DNA of 64,000 nucleotides. It comes from Candidatus Krumholzibacteriota bacterium. Its GTDB lineage: Bacteria > Krumholzibacteriota > Krumholzibacteriia > JAJRXK01. The translations under genes were made by a program, and so were the position numbers. Numbering within the stretch: the stretch's first letter is position 1; every line of letters begins with the position of its first letter. Positions 831 through 62,423 of this stretch are shown here, in pieces. Location of the stretch: contig CAVXTH010000002.1 in assembly GCA_963764625.1 (NCBI GenBank), forward strand, positions 34,554-98,553, in the 5' to 3' direction. Under the pieces are notes generated by a model that saw nothing but the letters and a program-made list of their open reading frames with translations, had not been told where the DNA came from and did no database searches.

Positions 831-950
831 GCCCAACGTGAATTCTACAGCCTCGTGCAAGGAGCCCGCTACGAGGGACCAACACCAGTAGGGATCCTAC
901 GTGGATCCCAGGGACCAAGCAAGCCGTCGGTTGCCAGGGGCCTGCATTCC
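831..950 (-). other. attI-like module copy A
   Basis: gcccAACgtgaattctacagcc...ggagcccgctacgag...gatcctacg...caggg...gcaagcc aligns with the intI-adjacent attI region 62259-62370. Confidence 0.7.
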
Positions 951-1011
951 ATGGCGTTCTTGCCGGTGCGCCTTGAGTCAGAGCTGGGTACGTGGCAGCG
1001 ATCAGATGCAC

Positions 1012-1038
1012 TGCAACCTTTCGGTTCCCTCTCACGTC
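1012..1038 (+). promoter_or_regulatory. Possible ECF-sigma promoter
   Basis: TGCAAC-N17-CGTC upstream of the DUF5916 gene. Confidence 0.3.
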
Positions 1039-1111
1039 CAACGGATAGATGCCAAAAGATCAGTATCCCCCGTGAGCTGCTGAAGCCTCCGTTGAGTCGG
1101 AGGCTTGGCCC

Positions 1112-3847
1112 TTGGAGGCAATCGTGAGCCCTCCCTCAGCCAACCGAGAGGTCCACACCATTTCTGCGGTGCGTTGGGCCGCCGCTGTCGTGTTCCTTCT
1201 TTTCCTGTTCATCTCGGGCGGCACGGCGTGGGCTCGCCAAGGTGGCCCGGGTTCGACGAGCGAGCTGCACGTCGAGCCTCTGAAGTCCGTCAAGGCCCAC
1301 CGTCTTAACGACACAGTCAAGATCGATGGCGTACTTGACGAAGCCGATTGGCAGGGAGAAGGCACCGATGGCTTCGTCCAGAACGAGCCGAACAATGGAG
1401 CCGCGCCCGTGCACCAGACGCGCTTTTGGGTCGGTTACGACGCGGACGCGATCTACCTGGCCATTCGCTGTTTCGACGACGCCCCCGACTCCATCGATAC
1501 GGCCATCGGCCGCCGGGACAGCGGAATCGATACCGACAAGGTCTACTTGGAGCTGGACACCTATAACGACGACCGTACCTGCTTTGAATTCATGGTCAGC
1601 GCCGGCGGCTACATTCTCGATGCTTCCGAGTACAACGAAGGCTGGGAGGATATGTCCTGGGACGGGGTGTGGGATGCCGCGGCCCGCGTCGACGACCAGG
1701 GATGGGCGGCTGAGATGCGCATCCCCTTCTCGCAGCTTCGCTACAGCAAGGACGACGACCAGGTGTGGGGGATCAACATCACGCGCTTCATCAAACGCGA
1801 TCATGGCCGGGAGGATCTGTTCTGGAAGGAGCGCAACGAGTCGGGTCACATCAGCCGCTTTCCCGATCTGGTGGGCATGCATGGACTACATGTGGACAGA
1901 CAGCGTGAGGCAATTCTGTACGGGGTGGGCAAGGGTGAGTATCTGCAGACTACAAACGGCGACCCGTTCAACGACGGCTCCAAGTACCTATACGACGTCG
2001 GCGGTGATCTCAAATGGGCTCTGGGAAGCAATCTCACTCTGAACGCCACCGTCAATCCCGATTTCGGTCAGGTCGAGGTGGATCCCGCCGTGGTCAATCT
2101 CTCGGATGTGGAGACGTTCTTCGATGAGAAGCGCCCCTTCTTCGTGCAGGACAGCAATACCTTCCGGTTTGGCCGCAATGGGACCAACAACAACTGGAAC
2201 TTCAACTGGAGTGATCCGACCCTGTTCTACAGCCGCCGCGTAGGACGCACCCCGCAGTTAGGCGTGACCGACAATGCCGACTACACTGACGACCCGGCGG
2301 GCACCACCATCTTGGGGGCGGCCAAGCTCACCGGGAAGGTGGGTAGCACCAGCATCGGTGGACTCACGGCGCTGACCTCGGCCGAGTTCCACGAGCTGGC
2401 GTCGGGTCCAGTGCGATCGCGGCAGCTCGCCGAGCCCCTCACCAGCTATACTGTCCTGCGGGCCAATCGGACTAATGCCGATGCCAGCCACGCCCTGGGG
2501 TTCATGTTCACGGCTACCGAGCGCAATCTCAGCGATCAAAACGCGCGCCAGTCGCTGACCCGCCAAGCGTATGCCACGGGCATCGACGGCTGGACCTATC
2601 TGGACAGCGATCGGCGCTGGGCGCTGCGCGGCTATCTGAGCGGCAGCCTCATCCAGGGCGAGACCGCGGCCATCCAGGCGCAGCAGCTGTCATCGAGGCG
2701 TTACTACCAGCGGCCCGACGCCGGCTATCTGCATTACGACCCCAATCGCACCCAGCTCAGCGGATGGACCTCGCGTCTGATGCTCAACAAGCAGAAGGGC
2801 GCCTACACACTCAACACCGCCTTGGGAGCCGTATCACCGGGATATGAGATCAACGATCTGGGCTTCCAGTGGCGCGGCGACGTCGTCAACTTCCACATGG
2901 TCGCGGGTCGGCGTTGGACCGAACCCAACCGCGTGTTTCGCAACCGTGGCGTTACCCTGGGCGGGTACTCGACCTGGGATTTCGGTGGCACTCGCAACGG
3001 CGGCGGCGTGGGTCTGTTCTGGAACGCCACGCTGGCCAACTACTGGTGGGCCGATGGTCAGTTCTTCTACAACCCCCAGTCCGACAACACGCGTGCCACC
3101 CGGGGCGGCCCCGTGCTGCGCAACCCCACCAACCGCGAGTTCTATCTGGAAGTGGGTACGGACTCGCGGCGCTGGTATCAGCTGTCGAGCGAAGTGGCGT
3201 CCTCGTGGATGGGAGACGGCACCCGCACCGCCAACGGTGGCCTGAACCTAAATCTGAAACCCACCCCCGCCCTGCAGATCAGCATGGGGCATGAACTGAG
3301 CTGGACCTACGACAGGAGCCAGTACGTCGACACGCGGGAGGATCCCATGTCGGCCACCTATGGTCATCGCTACCTGTTTAGCGACCTCCACTATCGCGAG
3401 CTGAGCATGAGCATGCGCGTGGACTGGTCGTTCACCCCGCAGCTCACGCTGCAGACCTACGTGCAGCCTCTCATCGCCGTGGGCCGCTACAGCGAAATCA
3501 AGGAGTTCACCGATCCCGGTGGTTACGCATTCAAGACCTACGGCAAGGATGGGGGCAGCAGCCTCGCCTACGACGCCGCCAGCGACGTGTACACCATCGA
3601 TCCCGGCGATGGCGGTGATCCCTTCACCCTGGACAACCCTAATTTCAACTTCAAGTCGCTACGGCTGAACATGGTGTTGCGCTGGGAGTATCTGCCGGGC
3701 TCGACCTTCTACCTGGTGTGGACGCGCAACGGCACGAACTTCGATCATCCCGGACAGCTCGATCTGAGCCGTGACATCGACGCGCTGCTCAAGGCGCCCA
3801 GCGACGACGTGGTGTTGGTCAAGCTGACGCGGTGGTTCGATTTCTAG
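1112..3847 (+). CDS. DUF5916-type outer-membrane protein with N-terminal carbohydrate-binding family 9-like domain
   Basis: Signal peptide; IDGVLDEADW, GWAAEMRIPFSQLRY, TVNPDFGQVEVD, EKRPFF, LFYSRRVG; C-terminal F. Exact start uncertain. Confidence 0.85.
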   Translation: MEAIVSPPSANREVHTISAVRWAAAVVFLLFLFISGGTAWARQGGPGSTSELHVEPLKSVKAHRLNDTVKIDGVLDEADWQGEGTDGFVQNEPNNGAAPVHQTRFWVGYDADAIYLAIRCFDDAPDSIDTAIGRRDSGIDTDKVYLELDTYNDDRTCFEFMVSAGGYILDASEYNEGWEDMSWDGVWDAAARVDDQGWAAEMRIPFSQLRYSKDDDQVWGINITRFIKRDHGREDLFWKERNESGHISRFPDLVGMHGLHVDRQREAILYGVGKGEYLQTTNGDPFNDGSKYLYDVGGDLKWALGSNLTLNATVNPDFGQVEVDPAVVNLSDVETFFDEKRPFFVQDSNTFRFGRNGTNNNWNFNWSDPTLFYSRRVGRTPQLGVTDNADYTDDPAGTTILGAAKLTGKVGSTSIGGLTALTSAEFHELASGPVRSRQLAEPLTSYTVLRANRTNADASHALGFMFTATERNLSDQNARQSLTRQAYATGIDGWTYLDSDRRWALRGYLSGSLIQGETAAIQAQQLSSRRYYQRPDAGYLHYDPNRTQLSGWTSRLMLNKQKGAYTLNTALGAVSPGYEINDLGFQWRGDVVNFHMVAGRRWTEPNRVFRNRGVTLGGYSTWDFGGTRNGGGVGLFWNATLANYWWADGQFFYNPQSDNTRATRGGPVLRNPTNREFYLEVGTDSRRWYQLSSEVASSWMGDGTRTANGGLNLNLKPTPALQISMGHELSWTYDRSQYVDTREDPMSATYGHRYLFSDLHYRELSMSMRVDWSFTPQLTLQTYVQPLIAVGRYSEIKEFTDPGGYAFKTYGKDGGSSLAYDAASDVYTIDPGDGGDPFTLDNPNFNFKSLRLNMVLRWEYLPGSTFYLVWTRNGTNFDHPGQLDLSRDIDALLKAPSDDVVLVKLTRWFDF

Positions 3848-3891
3848 GGGCGAGGTGGCGGGCGAGAGGCTGACTCGTCGTCGCAGTAGGA

Positions 3892-4083
3892 TCATTCATC
3901 CTCCGACTTTGCTTCGATGCTCACTACCTCGCCCTCAGATGTAACCACGGTGATGACGATCGGTCGACAACACACACTGCAGTCTTCAACGTATTCCTGG
4001 CGCCTCACTGAGCAGTCGACCACCACCTCGATCTGCTCCCAGCAGTACGGGCACTGGATCGATGCGGATTGGAGATTCGACAT
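3892..4083 (-). CDS. CPXCG-motif cysteine-rich protein
   Basis: CPYCWE...QEYVEDCSVCCRPI, 63 aa. Confidence 0.8.
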   Translation of the reverse strand: MSNLQSASIQCPYCWEQIEVVVDCSVRRQEYVEDCSVCCRPIVITVVTSEGEVVSIEAKSEDE

Positions 4084-4787: not shown

Positions 4788-4831
4788 GGCCAGCGGTACA
4801 ACGACGGCGAATGCGAGCCGGTGGCTCCACA

Positions 4832-5314
4832 CTATCTCGTCATCTCGTTGGCCGACCAACTGATAGCCGCCAACTTCCACTTTCCTGAAATCTTTTGCCA
4901 AACACCCAAATACTTGCCGACGGCCACCGTTCTTTCGCCCGATATTTCGAGCGCCATTTGGCTTCTCCCGTCGAAATACGCCAAGTCGCCCGAAGACCCC
5001 GCCACAATTGCTTCAGGCGTTCCAGATATTTCGATGAAGGGGAACTTGAACCATTGGGTGTCATAAAACACCCTGATGGCCTCATACCCCACAATTGGTG
5101 AATGCCCCGGAGGCTGAAAGACGGCGTGAGGAGCAATAAACTCCATTACACCGTCCAGGTCCCGTTGCTCTTCAGCCCGTAGAAGAGCCAGATCAGCTTC
5201 ACGGATCTGCGCCTCTATCGATTCAGTATCAACTGAACGGCCATTGGTACTGGCACAGCCACCTAACGTCGCGACGGCTACCACCAACAGGGTAAAAGCT
5301 AAATGTCGACTCAT
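4832..5314 (-). CDS. DUF4440/SnoaL-like (NTF2-fold) lipoprotein
   Basis: Lipobox LGGC; SGDLAY...GKYLGVWQK..GKWK; paralog of 52302-52784. Confidence 0.8.
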   Translation of the reverse strand: MSRHLAFTLLVVAVATLGGCASTNGRSVDTESIEAQIREADLALLRAEEQRDLDGVMEFIAPHAVFQPPGHSPIVGYEAIRVFYDTQWFKFPFIEISGTPEAIVAGSSGDLAYFDGRSQMALEISGERTVAVGKYLGVWQKISGKWKLAAISWSANEMTR

Positions 5315-5357
5315 TATTGGCACCCCTCGTTGTCTTCTACGTCGTTGACTTCCGATG

Positions 5358-5423
5358 GTATAACGCTAGAGCTAAGTGGCTGAATCGCCACGTGGCACAG
5401 TCTATTTGAGCGAATTGTCATGC
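5358..5423 (-). repeat. attC (degenerate)
   Basis: gtatAAC...gctaagt...atttgagc...gtcatgc. Confidence 0.55.
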
Positions 5424-9154: not shown

Positions 9155-9242
9155 GAAAACCCCCGTCAGCCGCAATGGCTGGTATGTTGATCGTCGGTCG
9201 AGCGTGCGGCCTCGCTTCTGCCGGGCCCTACTCTCGGAAATG

Positions 9243-9356
9243 TCTGGCGTGAATTCGACCGCCCCATGAAAGGGGCCTGCAAGGAGTCGTCCAGCACCGA
9301 TACTGACCTTACCCCGCTCGAGGGAACCGAGCAAGTCAATACATTTCAATGGCTTA
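9243..9356 (-). other. attI-like module copy B (core mutated)
   Basis: gtgaattcgaccgccccatgaaagggg...gagtcgtccagcacc...agggaaccgagcaagtc...atggctta aligns with copies C, E, F. Confidence 0.6.
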
Positions 9357-9453
9357 CAAGACAAGGAAGTCCCCTAAGAAAACGTGATCGATTCCGCTCC
9401 GGTTCCGTGCGTCTTCCTCCGAGCGAATTCACCGGACCCGTCTGTGAAAGGAA

Positions 9454-11094
9454 TTGATCATGAAGACCCCAAAGCGGCTGAGACAACTCTGCGGCTGCCC
9501 CCCCTTGTGCCTCCTGACGCTGCTGGCCGGCCTGGCCCTGCTCGGCCTCGGCTGCAGCAAGAGCGGCCCCACCGATCCCGGCAACACCGACCCGATCGAT
9601 CCCGCCCAGGTCAACGCCTTCGTCAATGACCTCCCCGACTGGGAGGTCCCGTCGACGGTAGAGGATCCCCCCGTCGATTTGCCCGACGAGCAGGACCTCG
9701 AAGACAACCAGTACTACCGCTGCCATCTCGTGCAGTACGACATGAAGCGGAACTTCGACAGCATCGTCGCGGTGGGCGCCAACGCGACCGCGCTCAAACC
9801 CGGCATGATGGTGCAGGGCAACGGAGTGAAGGACGGCTCGCTGTCGACCATCGGCCTGAAGCGCTCGCCGCTGCTATTGTCAGTGAACCTTGCCCTCGAT
9901 ACCCCGTCGCGGCGGGTGGACGTGCCCACCAGCTCGTCGATCCAGGACGCGATCGCGTCGCTGCAGCGCGAGGCGGACACGCGACTAGGCTCGCTTCCGG
10001 TCGTGCCGGCAATGATCAACTTCAAAGTCCAACAGGCCTACTCGTTCAGCCAGGCGATGCTATCGGCAGGGATCAGCCTCAACTATGACGCAGTCTTCGC
10101 GAACGGCTCGGTCAGCTCGACCTTCAACCAGAATAGCTCGGTAAAGTCCCAATCGGTCGTCGTGAAACTGCTGCAGCCGATGTACACGATCTCGTTCGCC
10201 GACGACGAGATGGCCGAGCCAGGAAACTTCTTTGCCGAGGATGTCACCCAGGCCGACTTCGACCGCCAGCGTCAGCTCGGCACGATGGGCCCCGGCAACT
10301 TGCCGTGCTACGTGCAGTCGGTCACCTACGGCCGCATGCTCGTCTACACCATGACCTCGACGGAAGCGACCAGCGCCCAGGAGCTCCAGCTCGCCGTGCA
10401 GGCATCGTACGGCGCCTGGGAGGGCTCAGGCCACGTCGACAGCCAGCAGCAGCAACTCGTGAACAACTCGACCATCCAGGTCCAGGTGTTCGGTGGCACG
10501 CAGGAGGATCAGCTCGACGCGATCAAAACGGCGCTGCACACCGGTGACTTCAGCGCCTTTCTGACGCCGGTGCCAGCAACCACGGCGGTGCCTCTTTCCT
10601 ATCGCATCAACGACTTGAAGAACCGGCAGCCGGCGGTGATCGGCGACGCGACGAAGTTCTCGATTAAAGAGTGCGAAGCCGTCAATGACATGATGTTCAC
10701 CGTATCGCTGGACAGCATCACTGTCGTCGACGGCTGCACGGACCAGACTCTCTTCGACATCGAGAGCTACGTCGACGTCACGGACAACGGCGAGTACTGG
10801 CTGATGCACCGGAGCGGTCCTGCCTTCACGCGCGAGGATCTGTTGAACGCGTACCACCAGGCCATCTTTACGGTGACGGCGAGTGCCAACACGACGATCA
10901 CCTTCACGACGAACTTCAACGGCGCCGGCGGTACGCACGACTACCACTGGTGGTCGAAGGTAACGACCTTCCAGTATCCATTCGACTTCCCATCAAATCC
11001 CCTGCACTTCAGCCATCTCGACACGACGACGAACGATCTGTACGACGGCTGTACGATGGAGATGCACTACACAATCCAGTGGGAATTGCAGTGA
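9454..11094 (+). CDS. Thiol-activated cytolysin (CDC-like) family lipoprotein
   Basis: Lipobox LLGLGC; PGMMVQG, YVQSVTYGRM, VFGG, VPLSY motifs; no ECTGLAWEWWR undecapeptide. Confidence 0.8.
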   Translation: MIMKTPKRLRQLCGCPPLCLLTLLAGLALLGLGCSKSGPTDPGNTDPIDPAQVNAFVNDLPDWEVPSTVEDPPVDLPDEQDLEDNQYYRCHLVQYDMKRNFDSIVAVGANATALKPGMMVQGNGVKDGSLSTIGLKRSPLLLSVNLALDTPSRRVDVPTSSSIQDAIASLQREADTRLGSLPVVPAMINFKVQQAYSFSQAMLSAGISLNYDAVFANGSVSSTFNQNSSVKSQSVVVKLLQPMYTISFADDEMAEPGNFFAEDVTQADFDRQRQLGTMGPGNLPCYVQSVTYGRMLVYTMTSTEATSAQELQLAVQASYGAWEGSGHVDSQQQQLVNNSTIQVQVFGGTQEDQLDAIKTALHTGDFSAFLTPVPATTAVPLSYRINDLKNRQPAVIGDATKFSIKECEAVNDMMFTVSLDSITVVDGCTDQTLFDIESYVDVTDNGEYWLMHRSGPAFTREDLLNAYHQAIFTVTASANTTITFTTNFNGAGGTHDYHWWSKVTTFQYPFDFPSNPLHFSHLDTTTNDLYDGCTMEMHYTIQWELQ

Positions 11095-11236
11095 CCGGAT
11101 CTTGGACGATCGGCGGGCCCGACGGGTCCGGGACGGTCCGCCGCGCGGACGGGGGCGGCCAAGCGTCGCCCCCGCTGCGTAGCCGACCCAATGAAAATAC
11201 TCTAGTATTCCATCTACCCCCTCTGGAAGGTGGACG

Positions 11237-11800
11237 ATGGATCCCGATCGCGCCGAGATCACCTCCCTGCTGTTGGAGCTGTCCGGCAACAACCGCGGGA
11301 CCGTTGACGCCCTCATGCCGCTCGTCTACGACTCTCTCCACGGCATCGCCCGCCGCCAGCTCAGCTTAGAGCGTCGCGACCACACACTGGCGCCAACCGC
11401 ACTGGTCCACGAGGCCTACCTGAAGCTCATCGACCAGGACCGCGTCCGCTGGCAAAACCGGGCCCATTTCTACGCGATCGCCGCGCGCGCCATGCGCCGC
11501 ATCCTCGTCAACCACGCCCGCGACCGCCTCGCGCAGAAGCGCGGCGGTGGCCTGGTCACGGTGACTTTCGACGAGGAGTTGGCCCCCGCCGTTACGGGCC
11601 CCGAGGAGATGCTGGCGCTCGAGGACGCCCTGATTCGCCTGCAGGAGCGCGACCCACGCCGCGCCCAGGTGGTCGAGTGCCGCTTCTTCGGCGGCCTGAC
11701 GCACGAGGAGATCGCAGAGGCACTCGGTGTGTCCGTGCCCACGGTGCAGCGCGACTGGCGCTTCGCCCGAGCCTGGCTCGCTAAGGAGCTGGCCTCGTGA
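11237..11800 (+). CDS. ECF sigma factor, kinase-associated (TIGR02999-like)
   Basis: HTLAPTALVHEAYLKL, HFYAIAARAMRRILVNHAR..KRGG, TVQRDWRFARAWL. Confidence 0.92.
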   Translation: MDPDRAEITSLLLELSGNNRGTVDALMPLVYDSLHGIARRQLSLERRDHTLAPTALVHEAYLKLIDQDRVRWQNRAHFYAIAARAMRRILVNHARDRLAQKRGGGLVTVTFDEELAPAVTGPEEMLALEDALIRLQERDPRRAQVVECRFFGGLTHEEIAEALGVSVPTVQRDWRFARAWLAKELAS

Positions 11801-14800
11801 GCGACTCGCACTGGGATCGTCTCGAGGCGCTGTTCGAAGCCGCCTGTGCTCTACCACCGGGGGAGAGAGACGCATTCCTGGAACGCGAATGTGGCGATGA
11901 CCTCGGCCTGCGCGACGAAGTGCAGTCGCTGCTCGACGCCGACCGGTCGAGTAACCACCTACTGGACGGCAGCGCGCTGGACCTCGCTCCTCCGCTCGCG
12001 GCTCCGCTGACCCCTGGCCGCCAGATCGGTCCCTACCGCGTGACCGCCGAGCTCGGCGAGGGCGGTATGGGAGCGGTATACCTGGCCGAGCGCTGCGACG
12101 GACAGTTCGAGCAGCGCGTGGCGCTGAAGGTCGTCCGTTTCGGCCTGGCGTCTCCCACGCTGGTGCGCCGGTTCGGGGAGGAGCGGCAGATCCTCGCACG
12201 CCTGGAGCATCCCGGCATCGCGCGGCTGCTCGACGGCGGTGTCACCGACGGCGGCCTGCCCTGGTTCAGCATGGAGTACGTCGAGGGCGAGCCGATCGAC
12301 CGCTGGTGCGACCGCCGTGGCCTCGGCGTCCGCACGCGCCTCGAGCTTTTCGCCGCGGTCTGCGACGCTGTCCAATACGCGCAGAACAACCTGGTGGTTC
12401 ACCGCGACCTCAAGCCCAGCAATATCCTGGTGACCGGCGACGGCGCCGTAAAGCTGCTGGATTTCGGCATCGCGAAGCTGGTCGCGACCAACTCCGAGGT
12501 CGATGATCGCGCCCTGCGCACCCTCACGGCTGCTCCGTTGATGACCGCCAGCTACGCGGCGCCCGAGCAGCTGCTCGGTGGGCGCATCACCACCGCCACC
12601 GACGTCTATGCGCTAGGGATGGTGCTCTACGAGCTGCTGGCCGGTGGTCGTGCCTACGAGGTGGCCGGCCTCACCCCGACCCAGCTCGAGCGTACGGTTT
12701 GCGTTGATACCCCGGCGCGGCCAAGCTCCACGGTCCGCGATTCGCGCCGGCGCCGGCACGTGGCCGGCGACCTCGACAACATCTGCCTCAAGGCGCTGGC
12801 CAAGGAACCCGAGCGCCGCTACGCAACCGCCGGCCAGCTCGGCGAGGACATCCGCCTGCACCTGTCCGGCCTGCCGGTACGCGCGCGACCGGCGACCTTC
12901 GGTTATCTCGCTCGCAAGGCGATACGGCGCTACCGTCCCCAGCTTACCGTTGCCGCCGCCGCGCTCGCCGTGTTGATCGTCCTGGGCGCCTGGTTCACGC
13001 ACCGCATCGCGCACGAGCGCGACCTGGCGCGACGCGAGGCCGCGCGCACGACTCAGGTCGCGAAGTTTCTGTCCTCGCTGTTCCGGGTGTCAGACCCCGA
13101 GGAGGCGCGCGGGGAAGACATCAGCGCACGCGAACTGCTCCAGCGTGGCGCCGCCCGGGTAGGCACCGAGCTGGCGGGGCAGCCGGACTTGCAGGCCACG
13201 ATGGACGGCGTCCTGGGCAACGTTTACCTGAATCTGGGCCTGCACGAGGAGTCCGACAGCTTGCTCACCCGCGCCGTGGCGTTGAATCAGAAGCTGAACG
13301 TGCGTGACGGACCGGAGTACGCCGAGCAGCTCGCGAACTTGGGCCAACTCCGCGTGGAGCAAGGACGGTATGCGGACGCCGACTCCGTGCTGACGGCGGC
13401 TCTGACCATCCAGCGGCGTGATCGCCGGCTCGAGGACACGCGCATCGCCGCGACGATGGTCTCGCTCGGGCACGTCATGGACTTGACGGGGGATTACGCG
13501 CGCGCGGAGACGCTCTACCGCGAGGCCATCGCCGTCTGCAAGGCGTCGCCGAAGCCCGACGAGCTCCGGCTCTCGACCGCCATGGGCGCGTTGGCGCTGG
13601 AACTCTTGGATCGCGACCAGCTGGACGAATCCGAGAATCTGTTCCGCGAGACTCTGGCGCTGCAGCGTCGCACTCTCGGCGAAGACCACCCCGAGGTCGC
13701 CACCACCCTGTTCAACCTCGGGTTGTTGCTGAGTAACCGCGGCGACTTCGCCGGTGCGGAGAAAATCCAGCGTGAGACCATGGCGCTGGACCGTAAGCTC
13801 TACGGCGAGGAACATCCCAACGTCGCCTATGATCTGAACAATCTCGCGTTCCTCGAGCGGCAGAAAGGCAATTTCGCGGAGGCCGAATCGGTGGCGCGCC
13901 AGGCCTTGGCGATGCGGCGCAAGCTTCTAGGTGACGACCATCCTCAAACGATCGAGACCGAGGCAAACCTCGCGCAGATCCTCCAGTCTCGAGGCGAGTA
14001 CGCCGCGGCTACCCAGCTGGCCCACAAAGTGCTGGACGCGAAGACCCGCATCTATGGCAGCGACAGTCCGGCTCTGTGCGCCGCCATGAACCAATTCGGC
14101 TGGTTCCTCTACGACCTGGGACGGTTCGCTGAGGCAGACTCACTCCACCGTCGTTCACTCGCGCTCGGCATCGAGAAGCTGGGAGCAGACCACAAGTCCG
14201 TCGCGATCAGCCGCCTGCAGCTCGCGCGCGACCTCGTTGCCGAGCACCAGCTGGCTGCGGCCGATAGCGTTCTGCAACCGGGCCTGGCGGCGGCCCGCCG
14301 TCTTTACGGAGACAGCAACATCTTTACCGCCGCCTTCCACATGGAGGAGGGAAGGATTCGTCTCGAGCAGGGACGCCTTAGCGCCGCGCTGACCGAAACC
14401 CGCACCGCGATGGCAGTCGCGGACAGCAGGGAGAAGGGCAGCCCTCGCCGCGCGGGGGCTCTGCTGCTGACGGCGGAAATCCAGCACGAGCAGGGGCACG
14501 CCGCCTCCGCCGATAGCCTCTACCGCGAAGCGACGCGGATCCGCGAACTCACCGTTCCCGCCAGCCATCCGGAGGCGGCGTGGATCAGGCTACGCCACGG
14601 AGCACTGCAGCTCGAGCAAGGCAAGGTCGCGACGGCTCGCACCCTGATCGTACCGGCAGCGGAGGCGCTGGCGAAGGCGCTGCCGCCCGATCACTGGCGG
14701 GTCGCTTACGCCCGGACCCTGGCGGCCGCCTGCCACCTGGACACGCGCGAACCCGGGGCCCGAGCGGAACTCGTCTCGGGGCGTGCGCGGGTCGCGGCGG

Positions 14801-14853
14801 ACCTGGGAGCTGACAATCGCCTGGTGAAGGCGCTTGCCCGGATTTCCGATTAG
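11797..14853 (+). CDS. Membrane Ser/Thr protein kinase with TPR repeats
   Basis: GEGGMGAVY, VALK, HRDLKPSN, DFG, APE; TM; LGEDHP-type TPRs; 4-nt overlap with the ECF gene. Confidence 0.95.
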   Translation: MSDSHWDRLEALFEAACALPPGERDAFLERECGDDLGLRDEVQSLLDADRSSNHLLDGSALDLAPPLAAPLTPGRQIGPYRVTAELGEGGMGAVYLAERCDGQFEQRVALKVVRFGLASPTLVRRFGEERQILARLEHPGIARLLDGGVTDGGLPWFSMEYVEGEPIDRWCDRRGLGVRTRLELFAAVCDAVQYAQNNLVVHRDLKPSNILVTGDGAVKLLDFGIAKLVATNSEVDDRALRTLTAAPLMTASYAAPEQLLGGRITTATDVYALGMVLYELLAGGRAYEVAGLTPTQLERTVCVDTPARPSSTVRDSRRRRHVAGDLDNICLKALAKEPERRYATAGQLGEDIRLHLSGLPVRARPATFGYLARKAIRRYRPQLTVAAAALAVLIVLGAWFTHRIAHERDLARREAARTTQVAKFLSSLFRVSDPEEARGEDISARELLQRGAARVGTELAGQPDLQATMDGVLGNVYLNLGLHEESDSLLTRAVALNQKLNVRDGPEYAEQLANLGQLRVEQGRYADADSVLTAALTIQRRDRRLEDTRIAATMVSLGHVMDLTGDYARAETLYREAIAVCKASPKPDELRLSTAMGALALELLDRDQLDESENLFRETLALQRRTLGEDHPEVATTLFNLGLLLSNRGDFAGAEKIQRETMALDRKLYGEEHPNVAYDLNNLAFLERQKGNFAEAESVARQALAMRRKLLGDDHPQTIETEANLAQILQSRGEYAAATQLAHKVLDAKTRIYGSDSPALCAAMNQFGWFLYDLGRFAEADSLHRRSLALGIEKLGADHKSVAISRLQLARDLVAEHQLAAADSVLQPGLAAARRLYGDSNIFTAAFHMEEGRIRLEQGRLSAALTETRTAMAVADSREKGSPRRAGALLLTAEIQHEQGHAASADSLYREATRIRELTVPASHPEAAWIRLRHGALQLEQGKVATARTLIVPAAEALAKALPPDHWRVAYARTLAAACHLDTREPGARAELVSGRARVAADLGADNRLVKALARISD

Positions 14854-14868
14854 AGAGAGTCGCCCCCC

Positions 14869-15525: not shown

Positions 15526-15573
15526 CCATCCCCTCCAATACGCAGTGGATACCCCGCGATGCCTACCGACGCT

Positions 15574-17291: not shown

Positions 17292-17616
17292 AATTCAACT
17301 CGACCCAAGAAGGCTACGGTTTGATACACACCAGCCGACGCATTCGAGTCGGCCTCAGCGACACCTAACTTGAATTATGCGGTGCACGTCCTCACGAACA
17401 CGCCCGCTAGTTCCAGAACTCTCACCACTTCTTGTTTCGCCGTCGTTCCTCTTCCGCTTCTTCATCTGTCTCGATCTCCGCACCGGCTCGCCCCCGATCC
17501 ATCCTGAGCATACAACAATCACGCCAAATTTGCCCGACATCCCCGGTTCGATCCAGCGAGATATTGGGGAGAGCGACCGGTGCCATTATGAACAGCTGGC
17601 ACGATCGACGAGTGGT

Positions 17617-45500: not shown

Positions 45501-45822
45501 CGGGTGCCGGATGCCAGGTCAGGCGCTTCGGCTCGCCGCCATCGACCGGCACCACGTACACGTCGTCATTGCCGCCGTACTCACCGCTAAAGGCCAACCA
45601 CTGGCCGTCGGGCGAAAAGTGGGGGGACTTTTCCACCGTAGGCGAGGAGGTCACCCGGCGCGCCTCGCCGCCTGCCCGCGGCACGGTCCAGATGTCGCCC
45701 GCGTAGGCAAAGGCAACAGATTGCGCGCTGATGTCGGGCTGATGCAGCAGGCGAGTGGTTTGGGCCTGCGTCGTCGCAGGTAAAAGCACGGCGGCCAGCA
45801 CCAGCAAGGACAGAAATCTCAT
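42570..45822 (-). CDS. Tricorn protease (peptidase S41), frameshift near 43565
   Basis: PD40 repeats (WSPDG), PDZ region, IDERFNHGG, SGSGGD, GTKTWGG, DPQLERGV. Confidence 0.92.
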
Positions 45823-51240: not shown

Positions 51241-51257
51241 GGTTTCCTCCTGAGACC

Positions 51258-51350
51258 TGCCTTGAATTCCACGGCCCCGTGCAAGGGGTTCACTACGAGT
51301 CATCCAGCGCCGGAAAGGATCCTTCGCCTCTCCAGGAGTCCGAGCAAGAC
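51258..51350 (-). other. attI-like module copy D (TAAC core deleted)
   Basis: gcc-ttgaattccacggccccgtgcaagggg..cactacgagtcatccag...gatccttcgcctctccagg...cgagcaag. Confidence 0.75.
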
Positions 51351-51463
51351 TGTGGCTCTTACGGCTCCATCCGATTGGCGTAGCGGGAAACACGTACGCG
51401 ATCACGCTGCTGCTCCGAATCATTTCACTTTTTGCGCAAGAAGGACGATTCCGTTGGACGCCT

Positions 51464-52144
51464 CTAACTTGCCGACTCGCTTTCTCGCGAAATCACAGGG
51501 GCAGTCCGATAGAATAGGCCTGCCAGCAAAACGCATACGACCAGGAACACACCGACGTAGCCTAGAATACCAATGTTTCGCACTTGCATGTTCCCGAGTA
51601 CAACGCCAATCAAACCGGCGAGCGCAAGCATCCCGCTAGCGATCATGGTCCCACGAACCCAAACCGCCAAACGACTTCCATTGAAGGCAGGAGCCGCAAA
51701 CAGCATTGAAAGAGCGAAGAAGAAGTCCCAGCCGAGTATGTCGAGCGAGTACACGACAGAAGGCCACTTGAACGACATGAACAAGGGCAACCACGACTGC
51801 TCCGCGAACGCGGGATGGCGGCTCAGTGTCAGAACGACGAAGTGCAGGCTACAGGTTAGGCTGGCAAGTACGCCCATGAAAATGACGGAAGTAAGACTGA
51901 GCGCCTTGATCGACCGCGGCGCCCAAGCGTGAACCACCACCATGAGTGCGACCATAGCCGGCATCATGACAATGATAAGGACCTCGAGAATCGTGAACAT
52001 CGGATCGCGGATCGGATCATCCGGCGATTCGAGCAACGCGAGACCGACAGCGAGCGTAGCTGCGTAAGCGACTAGCAGAACCGCCGTCGCAGCGGCCGAG
52101 AACATTCCGAGCCGACGAGCGGTTGCGGAAAACTCTATCGACAT
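51464..52144 (-). CDS. Multi-pass membrane protein cassette
   Basis: About six hydrophobic segments. Confidence 0.75.
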   Translation of the reverse strand: MSIEFSATARRLGMFSAAATAVLLVAYAATLAVGLALLESPDDPIRDPMFTILEVLIIVMMPAMVALMVVVHAWAPRSIKALSLTSVIFMGVLASLTCSLHFVVLTLSRHPAFAEQSWLPLFMSFKWPSVVYSLDILGWDFFFALSMLFAAPAFNGSRLAVWVRGTMIASGMLALAGLIGVVLGNMQVRNIGILGYVGVFLVVCVLLAGLFYRTAPVISRESESAS

Positions 52145-52270: not shown

Positions 52271-52301
52271 CCTCGATCGAATGCCTGCAAGTAGCCCGGG
52301 A

Positions 52302-52784
52302 CTATCTCGTCATCTCGTTGGCCGACCAGCTAATCGCTGCCAACTTCCACTTTCCTGAAATTTTTTGCCAAACACCCAGGTACTTACCGGCCGCCACGGT
52401 TCTTTCACCCGATATTTCGATCACCATTTGGCTTCTCCCATCGAGGAACGCCAAATCACCCGAGGACCCAACGATGATTGATTCAGGCGTTCCAGATATT
52501 TCAGTGAAGGGCAGCTTGAACCACTTGCTGTCATAAAACTGCCTGATGGCCTCGAGCCCCACTATTGGCGGAAAGCCCGGCGGCTGAAACACGGCTTGAG
52601 GTGCAATAAATTCCATGACACCGTCTAGATCCCGCGCCTCCTCAGCCTGTAATAGAGCCAGGTCAGCTTGACGGATATCCGCCGCTATCGTTTCAGTGTC
52701 AACTGAACTGCTCTTGAGATCGCCACAGCCACCTAAAGTCGCGGGGGCTACCAACAACAGGGCAAAAGCCAAATAACGGTTCAC
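52302..52784 (-). CDS. DUF4440/SnoaL-like lipoprotein
   Basis: Paralog of 4832-5314 with the same WSANEMTR end. Confidence 0.85.
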   Translation of the reverse strand: MNRYLAFALLLVAPATLGGCGDLKSSSVDTETIAADIRQADLALLQAEEARDLDGVMEFIAPQAVFQPPGFPPIVGLEAIRQFYDSKWFKLPFTEISGTPESIIVGSSGDLAFLDGRSQMVIEISGERTVAAGKYLGVWQKISGKWKLAAISWSANEMTR

Positions 52785-52826
52785 TCGTGCACCTTTCTTT
52801 GTCTTCTACGTTGCCTAGTTCCGTTG

Positions 52827-52890
52827 GTCTAACGCCGTCGATAAGCTGCGGGCGCCGAAGGCGACCGTCAGCTTTATCGGCTTGTTGGGC
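52827..52890 (-). repeat. attC
   Basis: gtctAAC..cgataagctg...cagctttatcg..GTTgggc. Confidence 0.9.
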
Positions 52891-53759: not shown

Positions 53760-53924
53760 GCCTAACGTAAATTCTACGGCCCCGCGTAAGGGGTCCGACT
53801 ACGAGTTATCCAGACCTGGTAATGATCCTACGCCTCCCCAGGGCACTGAACAAGCCCATGATCGCCAAGGGCTTATGGGGTGTAGATTTCGCTATTATCA
53901 CGCGCACCCTGACCCATCCAAGTG
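53760..53924 (-). other. attI-like module copy E with putative cassette promoter
   Basis: gcctAACgtaaattctacggccc...actacgagttatccag...tattatcacgc...acccatccaagtg; TTGGAT-16-GATAAT on minus strand. Confidence 0.85.
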
Positions 53925-53929
53925 ACTGG

Positions 53930-53989
53930 TCCGAACGCTCCGGTTCAGCGGTGGCGCGCAGCGGCGTCCGCTGCAGCCGGTTGTTCAAC
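53930..53989 (-). repeat. attC
   Basis: tccgAAC..ccggttcagcgg...ccgctgcagccgg..GTTcaac. Confidence 0.85.
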
Positions 53990-55478: not shown

Positions 55479-55610
55479 GCCTAACATTGTGCTCAGCGGC
55501 GCGGCCCTTGGCAGGCCAGGTGCTGCGCCCCCTCAAAACCTAGCCCCATGATGCCCCCGAAGCACCTGGCATGACAAGGTCCAAGCGTCCGCTGGAGCGG
55601 AGGGTTAGGG
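55479..55610 (-). repeat. attC (long family)
   Basis: gcctAAC..gctcagcgg...ccgctggagc..GTTaggg. Confidence 0.85.
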
Positions 55611-58256: not shown

Positions 58257-58358
58257 GGCTAACGCCCGCGTATCAGCCGCGGGCGCCAGCCTGGCACGCC
58301 AGGTGCGACCGCAGCTGGCGTGACAGGCAAGCTCGTCGGCTGCATACGCTAGTTAGGG
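58257..58358 (-). repeat. attC
   Basis: ggctAAC..gcgtatcagccg...cggctgcatacgc..GTTaggg. Confidence 0.92.
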
Positions 58359-58402
58359 CCTGCGCAATCACCGCCCCTTGATAGCTGCACTGCCGGCGCG
58401 AG

Positions 58403-59080
58403 TCAGTGGCCATAGCGTCTGCTCCTGCCCCTGAAGCTGGCAAGAGCGTCCTCGCAATCAGCTCTGGTCAAGTCGTTGATGAACTTGTCGAAAAACTGGA
58501 GCTCGGCGTAGCCAGCCTGAAGCGGCAGGAAGTTGCTGATGCGACGCTCGCCGGACGTGCGAAGAACAAGATCCACAGGTTCCGGAACCCAGAGCCGCGA
58601 CAGCAGCCCATCAACTCCCTGCCGCGCAGCGGTCAGAAGCTCGTCAATAGGGCTATACCCTGCCAGCAGGTATAGCCGCCTCTCCTCATTAGATGGGAGC
58701 GCTTGCAGCTCACGGATGGCAGCAAGGTAGTCACGAGGAAGCAAGTCTGCATCCCCGGCCAGACGGACCTCACAGCGCCATTTCGCAACGAGGTCTCTCA
58801 GTAGCGTTCTGAAGAACTCAGTCTCTCCGTGAGACGCGGCCTCGAAGTCCGAAGGAGGACGAGACAGGTTCTCTTTGCTGAGCATGTAGATACTGAGAGC
58901 ATCTGCTCCGTTCTCATAGAAGAAGTCGACAAACGCGGCGACACTGGGAATGGCCGCGAGGTAGGCCTCCGCAAGCGGAACGCCATTCGACCGCGCCCAA
59001 CGCCTCACGCCATCACCTATTAAGCCCACATGGAAACCGCTGCCCTCGGTGGGGCTGTCAAGCGTCCGCAGATCCAACAC
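58403..59080 (-). CDS. Divergent cis-prenyltransferase (UppS-fold) protein
   Basis: HVGLIGDGVRRWA, LSKENLSR, DLVLRTSGERRISNFLP, RSRRYG; GTG start with GAGGAGG RBS. Confidence 0.88.
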   Translation of the reverse strand: MLDLRTLDSPTEGSGFHVGLIGDGVRRWARSNGVPLAEAYLAAIPSVAAFVDFFYENGADALSIYMLSKENLSRPPSDFEAASHGETEFFRTLLRDLVAKWRCEVRLAGDADLLPRDYLAAIRELQALPSNEERRLYLLAGYSPIDELLTAARQGVDGLLSRLWVPEPVDLVLRTSGERRISNFLPLQAGYAELQFFDKFINDLTRADCEDALASFRGRSRRYGH

Positions 59081-59699
59081 CGGATTCCTCCTCGTCTTCG
59101 TCCTCGAGCGCTGAGTGAGACTGCAAGACCCATACGATTAGCAGAAGGAGTGTCACCGCCATCAGGCTGAGCGAGACCCACAGGGCACCACGTTCCCATC
59201 CCAAGATTTCGTCGTCGCCCGACGGTTTCAGCTGAAGGAACAGGACGATACTTACGACGCTCAGGATGAAGGGAATCGCGTACCTGACGAAGGCCAGAGA
59301 GCGATAGAGGATAGCTCTCCATTTCCCGATTGTAAGGTGGCTTCGATAGAGGAATCGATCCCAGGTCCAAACAGAGTCACGCGGTTCCAGTCCTATCAGT
59401 GTGTTCACGCGAGGCCGAAGGACAGTGAATATGTAGACGGCTGCCGTGTAGACGATCACGTCGTGCCGGAGAATCAGCCATATGACAATGCAGTACATGA
59501 GAGGGAATGCCAGCAGCACGGCAGCCGCAGCGGGTTGAGAGACGCTGACGCCAAACGCCGTGAGCATTGCTCCTGCCAGAATCACAGAGAGGTGGGTGAG
59601 CTGCTCCTGCCTAGCTACACGCGCCTTGATCTCGTCTCGCAGGTCCCTGTACTCATCTCGGATCGCCTCCAGCTCTGCCCGGACCCGATCTGCACTCAC
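59058..59699 (-). CDS. Four-TM membrane protein with EYxxLRxEI N-terminal helix
   Basis: GTG start with GGAGGAGG RBS; four hydrophobic helices; 23-nt overlap with the next gene. Confidence 0.8.
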   Translation of the reverse strand: MSADRVRAELEAIRDEYRDLRDEIKARVARQEQLTHLSVILAGAMLTAFGVSVSQPAAAAVLLAFPLMYCIVIWLILRHDVIVYTAAVYIFTVLRPRVNTLIGLEPRDSVWTWDRFLYRSHLTIGKWRAILYRSLAFVRYAIPFILSVVSIVLFLQLKPSGDDEILGWERGALWVSLSLMAVTLLLLIVWVLQSHSALEDEDEEESGVGSADA

Positions 59700-59760
59700 T
59701 GGGCAACACCTCCTCCAGGAGTCCGGCGGGGAATGATGTTCGTGTCGTGATTGCGCATGG

Positions 59761-59845
59761 CCCTAACGTCGGCCATGACGCGCGAGGAATGGCGCAGAGC
59801 GAAGCGGCGCGCTATTCCTCGTCGCTGTCGATGGCTTTGTTGGCC
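59761..59845 (-). repeat. attC
   Basis: ccctAAC..gccatgac..cgaggaat...attcctcg..gtcgatggc..GTTggcc. Confidence 0.88.
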
Positions 59846-60696
59846 ACCTCTTTCTGCTCGAGTTCTTTGAGTGTGGTTCCTTTTGAGTTCTTCCACGAGA
59901 TCAGTCCGTTCGCGTGGCCACCGTGGACGACCGAGGCGGCAGCGCTCGGGCTCGTGAACTCGTAGTCCTTGGCGAACGCGAGCCGATCACTCTGTTCGGT
60001 CAGAACCCCCTCGGACAGAAGCTGCGAACGTACGGTTGATGGGTAGGGGTACTTCTTGACGGAAGGACGTTCCTCCAGCACGGCTTCTGATCCCTTTAGG
60101 ACGAGAAAACCGTTCTCTGTTTGCCGCCCCGTGGCCTTGACCTTCTTGATCGTGCAAGTCAGGAGCTCGGAAGCCTTCACGGGCACGGTTGCTTTCACAA
60201 CAGGCTTGAGGAAGTCCTGCCCAAGAACGGGCAGGAGTTGCTCAACCTTTGCCAGGAAGACGTCCATATCGGCGGTGTCAGACTCTGGCAGGTGGGAGCC
60301 ACTCGCGTTGGTGTTCTCCAACTCAAATCGGTCTGCTGCTTTCGTCATCTCGATTAGCTTACCCTCAAGATACTTGATGTGAGCCTTGGTCAGGTTCTCG
60401 TCCTTGCTCACAAAGAAGATCACGGTCTTCCAGAAGTCTCGGTCGAGGTGCCCCTTCAATCTTGTCCGAACTACCTCCGCTTCCCCGACGTAGACTCTCG
60501 GTTTTCCCGTCTCGGAGTTGATCCCGGTAAGGAAGTAGATCCCCGGTTTCTTCGCTTCGTCGCGCTGAAGAACCAATTCAAGCTGGGACCGGGGGCCAGC
60601 CACAGCCTTACCCGTCCAGTTAGATATTTCCGCGGTCCGGACGGAGGCCGGATCACCTTCTGCAAGGAATATTTTTACGGTGGCTGTCTCTTTCAT
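59812..60696 (-). CDS. GIY-YIG nuclease with C-terminal DUF4357-like domain
   Basis: GIYFL..VYVGEA..RLKGH, KYLE; FTSPSAAASVVHG..NGLISWK. Confidence 0.85.
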   Translation of the reverse strand: MKETATVKIFLAEGDPASVRTAEISNWTGKAVAGPRSQLELVLQRDEAKKPGIYFLTGINSETGKPRVYVGEAEVVRTRLKGHLDRDFWKTVIFFVSKDENLTKAHIKYLEGKLIEMTKAADRFELENTNASGSHLPESDTADMDVFLAKVEQLLPVLGQDFLKPVVKATVPVKASELLTCTIKKVKATGRQTENGFLVLKGSEAVLEERPSVKKYPYPSTVRSQLLSEGVLTEQSDRLAFAKDYEFTSPSAAASVVHGGHANGLISWKNSKGTTLKELEQKEVANKAIDSDEE

Positions 60697-60706: not shown

Positions 60707-60766
60707 GGCCAACGTCCTGCCGTTCAGCCGGCGGCGGAGCCGGTCGGCTGCAACGGCTTGTTAGCA
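60707..60766 (-). repeat. attC (VOC cassette copy 1)
   Basis: ggccAAC..gccgttcagccg...cggctgcaacggc..GTTagca. Confidence 0.92.
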
Positions 60767-60806
60767 GGCCTTGCCTGCGTGTTGTTTTGGTAAACGAGAT
60801 AGTGCA

Positions 60807-61196
60807 TCACGTAAGCCCCGTCATTGTGGCGAACACAAGCACGTGTCCGTCTAGGTCCGTACTGTACGCCGCCTGGTCTCCCCAGTCCCGCGTGGCGAGA
60901 GGACTAAGTTCTGTGGCCCCCTGCTCCAAGGCTCGCTGGTGGAATGATTCGGGGTCGTCCACGGAAAGGTATATCTCCGCGCGAGGCACCCCCTTGGCAT
61001 CGTCCGGATCAGGGAGCTTCGTGCCCAGGAGGCGTCGGATGCCAGCCACCGGCATAAGCCCCAATACAGTTCCTTCGTTCAGCTTGAACTCTGTCATGCC
61101 GGGTACGTTCAGCGAGGGCCGCATCATCAACACCGCTTCATAGAAACGCGCGCTTGCTTCCTGATCAGAAACGAAAAGGATGATGTTCGCTCTCAT
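60807..61196 (-). CDS. VOC/glyoxalase family protein, intact copy
   Basis: FYEAVL..LNVPGMTEF, RDWGDQAAYSTDLDGHVLVF. Confidence 0.9.
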   Translation of the reverse strand: MRANIILFVSDQEASARFYEAVLMMRPSLNVPGMTEFKLNEGTVLGLMPVAGIRRLLGTKLPDPDDAKGVPRAEIYLSVDDPESFHQRALEQGATELSPLATRDWGDQAAYSTDLDGHVLVFATMTGLT

Positions 61197-61211
61197 CTGC
61201 CGCCTTCGTCC

Positions 61212-61271
61212 TGCTAACGTCCTGCCGTTCAGCCGGCGGCGGAGCCGGTCGGCTGCAACGGCTTGTTAGCA
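61212..61271 (-). repeat. attC (VOC cassette copy 2)
   Basis: Identical interior to 60707-60766. Confidence 0.92.
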
Positions 61272-61311
61272 GGCCTTGCCTGCGTGTTGTTTTGGTAAAC
61301 GAGATAGTGCA

Positions 61312-61700
61312 TCACGTAAGCCCCGTCATTGTGGCGAACACAAGCACGTGTCCGTCTAGGTCCGTACTGTACGCCGCCTGGTCTCCCCAGTCCCGCGTGG
61401 CGAGAGGACTAAGTTCTGTGGCCCCCTGCTCCAAGGCTCGCTGGTGGAATGATTCGGGGTCGTCCACGGAAAGGTATATCTCCGCGCGAGGCACCCCCTT
61501 GGCATCGTCCGGATCAGGGAGCTTCGTGCCCAGGAGGCGTCGGATGCCAGCCACCGGCATAAGCCCCAATACAGTTCCTTCGTTCAGCTTGAACTTGTCA
61601 TGCCGGGTACGTTCAGCGAGGGCCGCATCATCAACACCGCTTCATAGAAACGCGCGCTTGCTTCCTGATCAGAAACGAAAAGGATGATGTTCGCTCTCAT
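61312..61700 (-). pseudogene. VOC cassette copy 2, 1-nt deletion near 61596
   Basis: gaacttgtcatg versus gaactctgtcatg in copy 1. Confidence 0.8.
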
Positions 61701-61715
61701 CTGCCGCCTTCGTCC

Positions 61716-61783
61716 TGCTAACGTTTACTGTTCAGCCAGCAGCGGCGCTGAGCAGGCCGCGCTGCAACACGGGATTGTTAGGC
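61716..61783 (-). repeat. attC (VOC cassette copy 3, many indels)
   Basis: Recognisable distorted version of 60707-60766. Confidence 0.7.
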
Positions 61784-61834
61784 AGGCCACGCCAATTGAC
61801 GAGCTTGTTGGTTGGCTACAACGCAGATAGGCGA

Positions 61835-62243
61835 TCACGTAAGCCCCGTCATTGTGCGCGAACAACAAGCACGAGTCCGTGTAGGACGATGACTGTACGC
61901 CGACTGGGCATATGAAGTCGCCGCGTGGCGAAGAGGACTAAAGATCGCGTAGCCACCCTGCTCCGAGGCTCGAAGGTGGAATGGATCCGGGGATCGTACA
62001 CGGAAAGATATATCTGACGTGTCGAGGTATCTGCTTGGCGCAACGTCCGTGATTAGTGGAGCATGGTGCCCAGGAGGCCGTCGGATGCCAGCAACCGGCA
62101 TAAGTGCCAATACAGTTCCTTCTTTCATCATGAACATCTGTCATGCCGGGTACGTTCAGCGAGGGCCGCATCATCAACACCGCTTCATAGAAACGCGCGC
62201 TTGCTTCCTGATCAGAAACGAAAAGGATGATGTTCGCTCTCAT
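61835..62243 (-). pseudogene. VOC cassette copy 3, indel-riddled
   Basis: 5' ~105 nt identical to copy 1, remainder dense in indels. Confidence 0.75.
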
Positions 62244-62258
62244 CTGCCGCCTTCGTCC

Positions 62259-62423
62259 TGCTAACTTGAATTCTACGGCCCCATGTAAGGAGCCCACTAC
62301 GAGTTATCCAGTACTGGTAACGATCCTACGCCTCACCAGGGGAGCCGGGCAAGCCCATGGTCGCCAAGGGCTTGTTACGCGCTGATTTCGATATTATCAC
62401 GCATACCGTCACCCATCTAAGTG
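62259..62423 (-). other. attI (copy F) with putative Pc, downstream of intI
   Basis: Minus strand gtagaattcaaG/TTAGCA at the first cassette boundary; no attC-like palindrome; TTAGAT-16-GATAAT at 62420-62393. Confidence 0.85.

Follow-up and report, generated by a model that had tools for sequence, protein, structure and literature searches.

Can one chromosomal cassette region hold several attI sites and, if so, how would it have come by them? The question is raised by a stretch of 64,000 nt (the window; G000:C2:34554-98553 in our labels) from a Candidatus Krumholzibacteriota bacterium, assembly GCA_963764625.1, contig CAVXTH010000002.1, positions 34,554-98,553 of the forward strand. The assembly comprises 3.57 Mb in 9 contigs and is 96% complete, and the window stops at a contig end. 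The organism occurs in samples from salt marsh, wetland and soil. From ~3.9 kb to 62.2 kb it is spanned by minus-strand open reading frames (ORFs) of typical cassette families (SnoaL, glyoxalase, methyltransferase, GNAT, RibD_C, DinB and PF00144 hydrolases), which are separated by attC sites. An integron integrase gene, intI, lies ahead of the first cassette, and the sequence between the two, here called the module, recurs within the cassette region. An initial annotation had described a multi-entry integron in which a single integrase serves six attI/promoter modules spread by the platform itself. Our analysis points elsewhere. The sequence and position of the module are best accounted for by an attI belonging to a co-oriented (Treponema-type) chromosomal integron, and we favour, with somewhat better than even confidence, the view that the region is a compound of several integron platforms that lost their integrases by decay or deletion, so that attI was left heading the sub-arrays.

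The arrays show the hallmarks of an integron: repeated attC sites in one orientation, with paired RYYYAAC / GTTRRRY ends, placed after short ORFs. A covariance model trained on ten clear window sites returned 18 plus-strand sites and no others at E < 0.01; 8 of them were new and 10 were the training sites. Additional, more degenerate sites were seen by eye in other sub-arrays. Our own energy-based attC scans gave many false positives or missed sites, and the covariance model was used instead, together with reading of the sequence.

Copies of the module

BLASTN with positions 62259-62423 as query returned six further plus-strand matches in the window, giving seven long copies (Table 1). The five places at which the repeat had first been listed were all recovered; the count of six rises to seven with the addition of copy X at 32020, to which two 13-nt relics must be added. 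A profile search of the whole genome found exactly seven modules (E ≤ 1.3e-25; next best E 0.22) on a single contig and strand, and the common orientation noted at the outset holds for 7/7. The module measures 117-165 nt, with a conserved core of ~117 nt that begins GCCTAAC on the plus strand, that is, GTTAGGC on the cassette strand, the canonical core. In an alignment of 12 copies that includes those of relatives, this box is preceded by CGTAG in three direct repeats, spaced 29 and 24-25 nt. In all 12 the similarity ends exactly at the crossover GTT (AAC on the plus strand), in agreement with the end point initially proposed, and different cassettes lie beyond it.

The copies form two classes. 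F, E and C, at 80-87% core identity within the window, belong to a well-kept class that also includes one copy in a genome of the same genus (G002 C13) and three on metagenome contigs (L108, L107 and L110); the core is 79-96% identical across this class, and its members share a 57-nt upstream extension at 60-94%. The cores of A, B, D and X are 54-72% identical, and these decayed copies, taken with a diverged copy in G002 (C9), are 54-76% identical to all others and to each other. They show no upstream conservation, the 57-nt extension being absent, and zero to two of the three CGTAG repeats are left. A GTTRRRY box is present in five of the seven window copies, as GTTAGGC in E, C and X, as GTTGGGC in A and as the near-fit GTTAGCA in F (5th position C, not R); it is gone from B and D, whose cores had correctly been described as damaged. 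Pairwise divergence between the window copies is 13-46%. Invariant core columns number ~25 of ~116, which is close to our own estimate for neutral decay and is no proof of selection on the decayed copies.

Reading of the sequence together with the attC model supports the earlier statement that each copy heads minus-strand cassettes for F, E, D, C, X and B. For A the support is weak: this copy is followed by two small ORFs and then a PMT_2 glycosyltransferase gene, and no attC was found after it. A and B do stand back to back with plus-strand non-cassette genes (DUF5916 and PF01289-family, respectively), the starts of which are 94-157 nt away. Large segmental duplication, raised beforehand as an objection, is not the case, as the copies do not lie in larger duplications and only C shares a longer platform segment, of 800 bp, with F. 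Beyond the long copies, the pattern of the crossover end was found nine times at ≤2 mismatches, against 0.71 expected by chance per window; the two relics in Table 1 carry one mismatch each. The ORF upstream of each of D, X and F (intI in the case of F) has its stop codon inside a core-like GTTAG/GTTGA motif (51455-51466, 32177-32182 and 62440-62446), which could be due to chance or could be a trace of junction formation.

The module as a candidate attI and probable exchange point

In all four contexts in which intI or a remnant of it is present (F, G002 C13, L108 and C), the module follows it directly. Three different first cassettes begin behind the module: F and G002 have a glyoxalase there, L108 has an unnamed ORF, and C has a BD-FAE hydrolase. 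Because the module adjoins intI and a variable cassette starts at its end, it is an attI by working definition. In two relatives of the same family, G005 and G006, direct repeats are likewise found in the 220-265 nt after the intI stop, a stretch that finishes with CTACTACTTGTTAGGC or CTACTACTTGTTAGCC ahead of the first ORF. Among IntI relatives, attC hits were co-oriented downstream of intI at nine loci, and the classical divergent layout was seen at six. The module would then be the double-stranded docking site of the integrase, with the CGTAG repeats ahead of the GTTAGGC crossover box as candidate integrase-binding sites, and intI would be transcribed towards the cassettes.

The module does not behave as an attC hairpin, the best attC-model score on any module being 9.4 bits (E 5.5). 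The RNAalifold consensus fold is weak on the two strands (-6.0 and -10.3 kcal/mol), and Rfam 15 gave no match in the window at the gathering score and none at E ≤ 1 in 62200-64000. A structured RNA was rejected on these grounds, and a conserved ORF was rejected in view of single-base and 3-base indels between copies. A sigma-70 consensus scan of the cassette strand (-35/-10 with 16-18 nt spacing) found no sites in F, E or C, although the promoter type of the host may differ. By eye, a GTGATAATA block in the module is a possible extended -10, which fails the rules of the scan. The designation as promoter modules is thus not supported, and A, B, D and X are without the upstream extension altogether.

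Several junctions suggest that internal copies have taken part in recombination. Copy E starts eight bases after a complete attC, and the same type of junction, behind a different attC, is found on metagenome contigs L107 and L110. These two share the upstream cassette, the attC and the module (93.4% over 747 nt) and then split exactly at the crossover, beyond which each carries a different cassette followed by an attC. At the attC junction both retain CGG TGA A, the intI stop-codon context of L108. Since this context was kept, E-type copies are suggested to have arisen by removal of intI from a platform standing behind another array. At 96.5% identity, the L107 module is close to the intI-linked module of L108, a contig from the same metagenome, yet it has an E-type 5' end, from which it follows that copies exchange sequence.

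Contigs from the sequencing runs point the same way. One departs from the window at 53767, in the RibD_C cassette, into an ordinary attC; another joins at 51259, the crossover of D; and in several, 53934/5 is linked to the attC at 55479-55610 and the PF00144 cassette is missing. Parts of the window without run-contig cover, such as 58264-60255, were not counted as evidence. Since the same layout occurs with different downstream cassettes in metagenome relatives, the internal copies appear to have served as recombination points, and junctions of at least the E type indicate cassette turnover in related populations.

Integrase remnants and the origin of the region

The intI gene of the window occupies three frames. 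Compared with the intact 330-aa orthologue of G002, it has two single-base length changes and 19 substitutions, and 176 nt separate its stop (62442) from the GTT of the first cassette downstream. The G002 protein scores 432.8 bits on TIGR02249 (profile positions 2-315; cut-off 265), while the window gene, because of its two frameshifts, yields pieces only (149.8 and 84.5 bits; in another scan 181, 132 and 81 bits). A tblastn search of the assembly revealed no further integron integrase; its only matches, at 32% identity, were to Xer-like genes. The 3'-terminal 190 nt of intI, on the other hand, recur beside copy C and at 21507, and both remnants break off at one identical position in intI and continue into the ~450-nt element found ahead of the full-length gene. 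Short direct repeats flank the deletion that they have in common. As it is joined to the same element in both places, the two remnants descend from one internally deleted platform. The three platforms (F, C and 21507) diverge by ~20%. The picture of one integrase serving the region thus gives way to one of whole-platform duplication, with the only full-length intI frameshifted twice.

The ~450-nt element occurs at least five times in the genome (63544-64000, 41966-42420, 21688-22100, C5:1656-2163 and C7:255476-255844). It has a CAAA-N6-TTTG palindrome at its start and a MKTQIRGSL... ORF with 1-4 SERRDT-like units, and it has no Rfam match. The C5 copy stands ahead of a DnaE2-like polymerase of 1083 aa with PHP, Pol III alpha and finger domains. 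The element may be an SOS-type control region and leader common to intI and an error-prone polymerase.

On the account we favour, the 62-kb region would be a concatenation of one platform with a near-full-length intI (F), two with the same deleted intI (C and 21507) and others without intI. Integrase loss and array fusion would have occurred partly by ordinary deletion, of the kind shared by the two remnants between short direct repeats, and probably also by integrase-mediated joining of an attC to the intI end, leaving attI directly behind attC as at E. The well-kept internal copies E and C would keep a usable crossover and act as exchange points in the population, A and X would be drifting, and B and D would be dead. 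The merging of platforms is supported by the remnants at 41755 and 21507 with their one deletion, and by a second attI beside a broken intI in G005, as well as by the orphan second copy in G006.

The module itself has a narrow distribution. It was found in 2/41 relatives by BLAST, in 2/10 genomes of the order and in 2/151 of the class, each time in this genome and G002, and there were no matches in 80 loci of distant IntI relatives. G002 has three module matches and carries the F junction with the same first cassettes; its diverged C9 copy (C9:254338-254454) lies among genes resembling those of insertion sequences (IS), with no attC nearby by the covariance model. The surroundings of that copy (G002:C9:240000-280000) and G000:C9:475000-513000 are dense in repeated 180-860-nt units and IS-like genes (IS66-accessory-like and IS30-like). 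IntI has a wider distribution than the module, with scores above the cut-off in 6/10 genomes of the order and relatives of up to 62% identity in Treponema, cyanobacteria, Planctomycetota and Acidobacteriota. When the attI stretches of G006 and G005 were searched in five relatives, each of these two genomes proved to contain its own stretch a second time in diverged form: the G006 copy (74%) is an orphan that follows an ordinary gene, and the G005 copy (71%) lies beside a broken intI fragment. Second attI copies are therefore not confined to the genome studied here, and a further copy was present in 3/3 relatives searched for one (G002, G005 and G006). For five of the seven above-cut-off intI genes of the order, the contig stops only 218-391 nt beyond the 3' end of the gene (G005:C34, G005:C53, G007:C67, G008:C83 and G009:C146), as expected if assemblies break where strain-variable cassettes begin.

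Several observations weigh against the merged-platform account. A divergence of ~20% between platforms is high for duplicates made within one genome, and acquisition from different lineages may be involved. Neither a trace of intI nor a clear attC is visible in the sequence upstream of D and X. Of the seven well-kept copies only six have intact CGTAG repeats, and in the decayed copies these repeats are mostly gone. L107 and L110 come from different samples and could represent paralogous places rather than alleles. The intI frameshifts could be assembly errors; if real, they affect the sole full-length gene, so nothing at the region may be active now. Finally, among 54 distant IntI loci with at least 1 kb of downstream sequence, the 220 nt after intI had no far repeat within 4-kb flanks, although this is a weak test.

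The chief alternative is that one working integrase serves several attI in trans, the entry site having been actively multiplied, perhaps as an ORF-less 'attI cassette', to give adaptive, separately promoted sub-arrays. This explanation, which we regard as rather improbable, draws on the E, L107 and L110 copies, each bracketed by an attC core upstream and its own GTTAGGC ~170 nt downstream in the manner of an excised and re-inserted unit. The differing cassettes downstream of L107 and L110, the sequence exchange implied by the L107-L108 identity, and the 57-nt extension conserved in F, E and C with its AT-rich GTGATAATA block would also agree with it. The intI remnants beside C and at 21507, however, indicate that whole platforms were copied and not sites alone, and the only full-length intI here is broken. 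Decay has affected four of the seven copies, two of which lack the GTT, no sigma-70-type promoter was detected in F, E or C by the consensus scan, and A and B adjoin non-cassette genes rather than attC sites. With cores of 54-72% identity in the decayed copies and a number of invariant columns near that of neutral decay, relics of merged platforms fit better than an adaptive design by which the platform spread its own entry site. What stands of the proposal of several loadable entry sites is an attI-type module, its presence in multiple copies and E-type cassette turnover in related populations; the single integrase, the promoters and the adaptive spread are not supported.

Three further explanations seem to us less probable still. 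The module might be an ORF-less gene cassette with an unusually long recombination site that tends to sit first, the true attI being short and located at the intI stop (GCGTTGAAG in F). The stop of F's intI does lie within GTTGAAG, which resembles a core site, the stop of the ORF upstream of D and X lies within GTTAG, and E-type copies follow an attC as any cassette would. This explanation predicts insertions between intI and the module, whereas 4/4 contexts keep the module beside intI with the variable cassette behind it; moreover, the module neither folds nor scores as an attC, and a comparable repeat-rich stretch occupies the same place in the family relatives. We consider it unlikely. A transcribed regulatory leader or small RNA ahead of cassette runs, conserved for its RNA function, would explain the two or three compensatory pairs in small hairpins (e.g. 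AAGCCC/GGGCTT vs AAGTCA/TGGCTT) and the first ORFs that begin 13-40 nt behind four copies. It is very unlikely in view of the weak consensus structure on both strands and the lack of an Rfam match at the gathering score or at E 1, and the conservation lies in linear blocks and direct repeats with an end point at the recombination crossover. Chimeric joins in a metagenome-assembled genome deserve mention because the assembly is in 9 contigs and the window stops at a contig end inside a repeated element. They are hardly credible given that an independent metagenome contig (L109) is 99.9% identical to the C locus across 2191 nt, a run contig spans 41000-42380 with two differences, the F junction is present in G002, and the E-type junction is found in L110 at 91% identity. 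The 13-46% divergence between copies is also not that of collapsed or duplicated reads, and the concern about chimeras voiced with the initial annotation is largely dispelled by L109, the run contig across C and the F junction of G002.

The remaining features of the window are given with the module copies in Table 1. Four blocks of ordinary genes break up the arrays. In the plus-strand block back to back with copy B (9460-14853), a 546-aa protein has a thiol-activated cytolysin domain (PF01289, E 4e-27), and the same block encodes a sigma factor of the extracytoplasmic function (ECF) type (PF07638) and a 1018-aa Ser/Thr kinase with TPR repeats. Elsewhere a CHASE domain is divided over adjacent minus-strand ORFs, 27826-28530 and a 989-aa PAS hybrid histidine kinase at 24917-27886, which suggests a frameshift within one sensor gene. 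Cassettes have been duplicated between or within sub-arrays, namely a SET-domain cassette (35785-36375 vs 38686-39276, 99.7%), a methyltransferase cassette (14849-15555 vs 29776-30483, 94.6%) and a SnoaL-like cassette (4808-5366 vs 52278-52835, 80.7%). The first cassette, of the glyoxalase family, is present with its attC in three tandem copies (60708-62265, 83-91% identity), of which copies two and three appear frameshifted or degenerate; G002 has two copies.

Table 1. Module copies, integrase sequences and other features of the window (BLASTN matches are to the query 62259-62423)
Feature	Position	Strand	BLASTN match	Remarks
Copy F	62259-62441	-		Extends from intI stop to first cassette; GTT at 62265-62263; three CGTAG; 57-nt upstream extension
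Copy E	53760-53923	-	53762-53924, 81.7%, E 3e-40	Well kept, core 84% to F; heads RibD_C cassette
Copy D	51256-51381	-	51261-51348, 79.8%, E 6e-17	Decayed, core 62-72% to others; TGCC for TAAC; 1/3 CGTAG
Copy C	41586-41750	-	41588-41745, 81.8%, E 1e-39	Well kept, core 87% to F; GTTAGGC intact; heads BD-FAE hydrolase cassette
Copy X	32020-32142	-	32022-32127, 72.1%, E 3e-8	Decayed, core 54-69%; GTTAGGC intact; 1/3 CGTAG; absent from initial annotation
Copy B	9241-9366	-	9250-9335, 72.4%, E 1e-7	Most decayed, core 54-68%; TGGC for TAAC; 0/3 CGTAG; back to back with PF01289-family gene (+)
Copy A	831-955	-	835-944, 72.3%, E 2e-10	Decayed, core 60-72%; GTTGGGC kept; 2/3 CGTAG; back to back with DUF5916 gene
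Relic of crossover end, 13 nt	17365-17377	-		CTAACTTGAATT, 1 mismatch; ahead of DinB cassette
Relic of crossover end, 13 nt	18983-18995	-		1 mismatch; between ankyrin and methyltransferase cassettes; no normal attC seen there
intI	62442-63431	-		Co-oriented with cassettes; two single-base frameshifts near 63148 and 62781 relative to G002 orthologue
intI 3' remnant	41755-41945	-		Last ~63 codons with stop; beside copy C; fused by internal deletion to element 41966-42420
intI 3' remnant	21507-21657	-		87.5% to intI of F; same deletion, joined to element 21688-22100; module and last ~15 codons missing
~450-nt element	63544-64000	+		Divergent from intI; runs off contig end; CAAA-N6-TTTG palindrome; small ORF (MKTQIRGSL...)
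Complete attC of PF00144-family cassette	53930-53989	+ (written on folding strand)		66.3 bits; directly upstream of copy E
Ordinary gene, DUF5916	1112-3847	+		
Ordinary block	9454-14853	+		PF01289-family gene, ECF sigma factor, TPR Ser/Thr kinase
Ordinary block	22193-28530			Two-component genes
Ordinary block	42570-46487			Tricorn protease and PRAI

Relation to known integrons

For nearly all chromosomal integrons the attI has yet to be identified, and cassette clusters that lack an integrase are accordingly treated as headless. Repetition makes the site recognisable in the present case, and the region suggests that several platforms can merge into one long store in which sub-arrays retain their head site after integrase loss. 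At least one type of internal site appears to have had different cassettes placed behind it in related populations, and the second copies in two family relatives raise the possibility that such arrangements are common wherever attI can be traced. The copies form a natural set of attI variants (intact, drifting and core-dead) for defining the needs of a co-oriented integrase, and the set could show whether cassette expression and capture are limited to the first position of an array. We tentatively consider, as a possibility on the doubtful side, that attI sites persist and even move as ~170-nt units, from the intI end to their own GTT, inserted at attC. If so, clusters of attC sites lacking integrases (CALIN) would not be dead stock and could be loaded by any compatible integrase in the cell or population, and the region would be a multi-entry integron that receives new cassettes at several depths of a 60-kb store.

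One close likeness is to the Treponema denticola-type integron, in which a single strand carries intI, the site that follows it and the cassettes; nine relative loci show this arrangement too. PMC3607928 describes this co-oriented layout in Treponema and states that each integron has only one attI, whereas the region described here has seven long copies and two short relics over 62 kb, with three intI genes or remnants. The literature searched, which did not extend to supplementary files, yielded no account of a chromosomal cassette region with several full attI copies. The sub-arrays also resemble CALIN in being cassette clusters without a neighbouring working integrase. According to Cury et al. 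2016 (IntegronFinder; PMC4889954), intI pseudogenes occur near 15/279 CALIN, an origin by integrase loss or integron splitting was proposed, and attI could not be searched for, as it is unknown for most integrons. By comparison with the CALIN described there, the attI is recognisable here and the integrase-less sub-arrays keep their own head site.

Two comparisons concern attI itself, and both draw on PMC12901181 (2026). That source describes delta-attI in cassettes of mobile integrons: on plasmids, a truncated attI takes the place of a resistance cassette's attC, and the integrase still recombines it. The likeness lies in attI-derived sequence within an array, in place of or next to an attC. 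The relics at 17365 and 18983 resemble short delta-attI ends, and the absence of a normal attC from the ankyrin cassette before 18983 would fit as well. Copy E, with a complete attC and a complete module, does not fit, and the differences from delta-attI as described there are that the modules (117-165 nt) are whole and stand alone, that one of them follows a complete attC, and that the region is chromosomal and sedentary and belongs to an environmental bacterium. The attI1 site of class 1 integrons is described in the same source as an R box (GTTRRRY), an L box and the direct repeats DR1 and DR2, bound by IntI1. The module shares with attI1, so described, a GTTRRRY box at the crossover and direct repeats upstream of it. 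The two have no sequence similarity, and the module differs in its length (117-176 vs 65 nt), in its three CGTAG repeats as opposed to two of GTTA type, and in its position 3' rather than 5' of intI.

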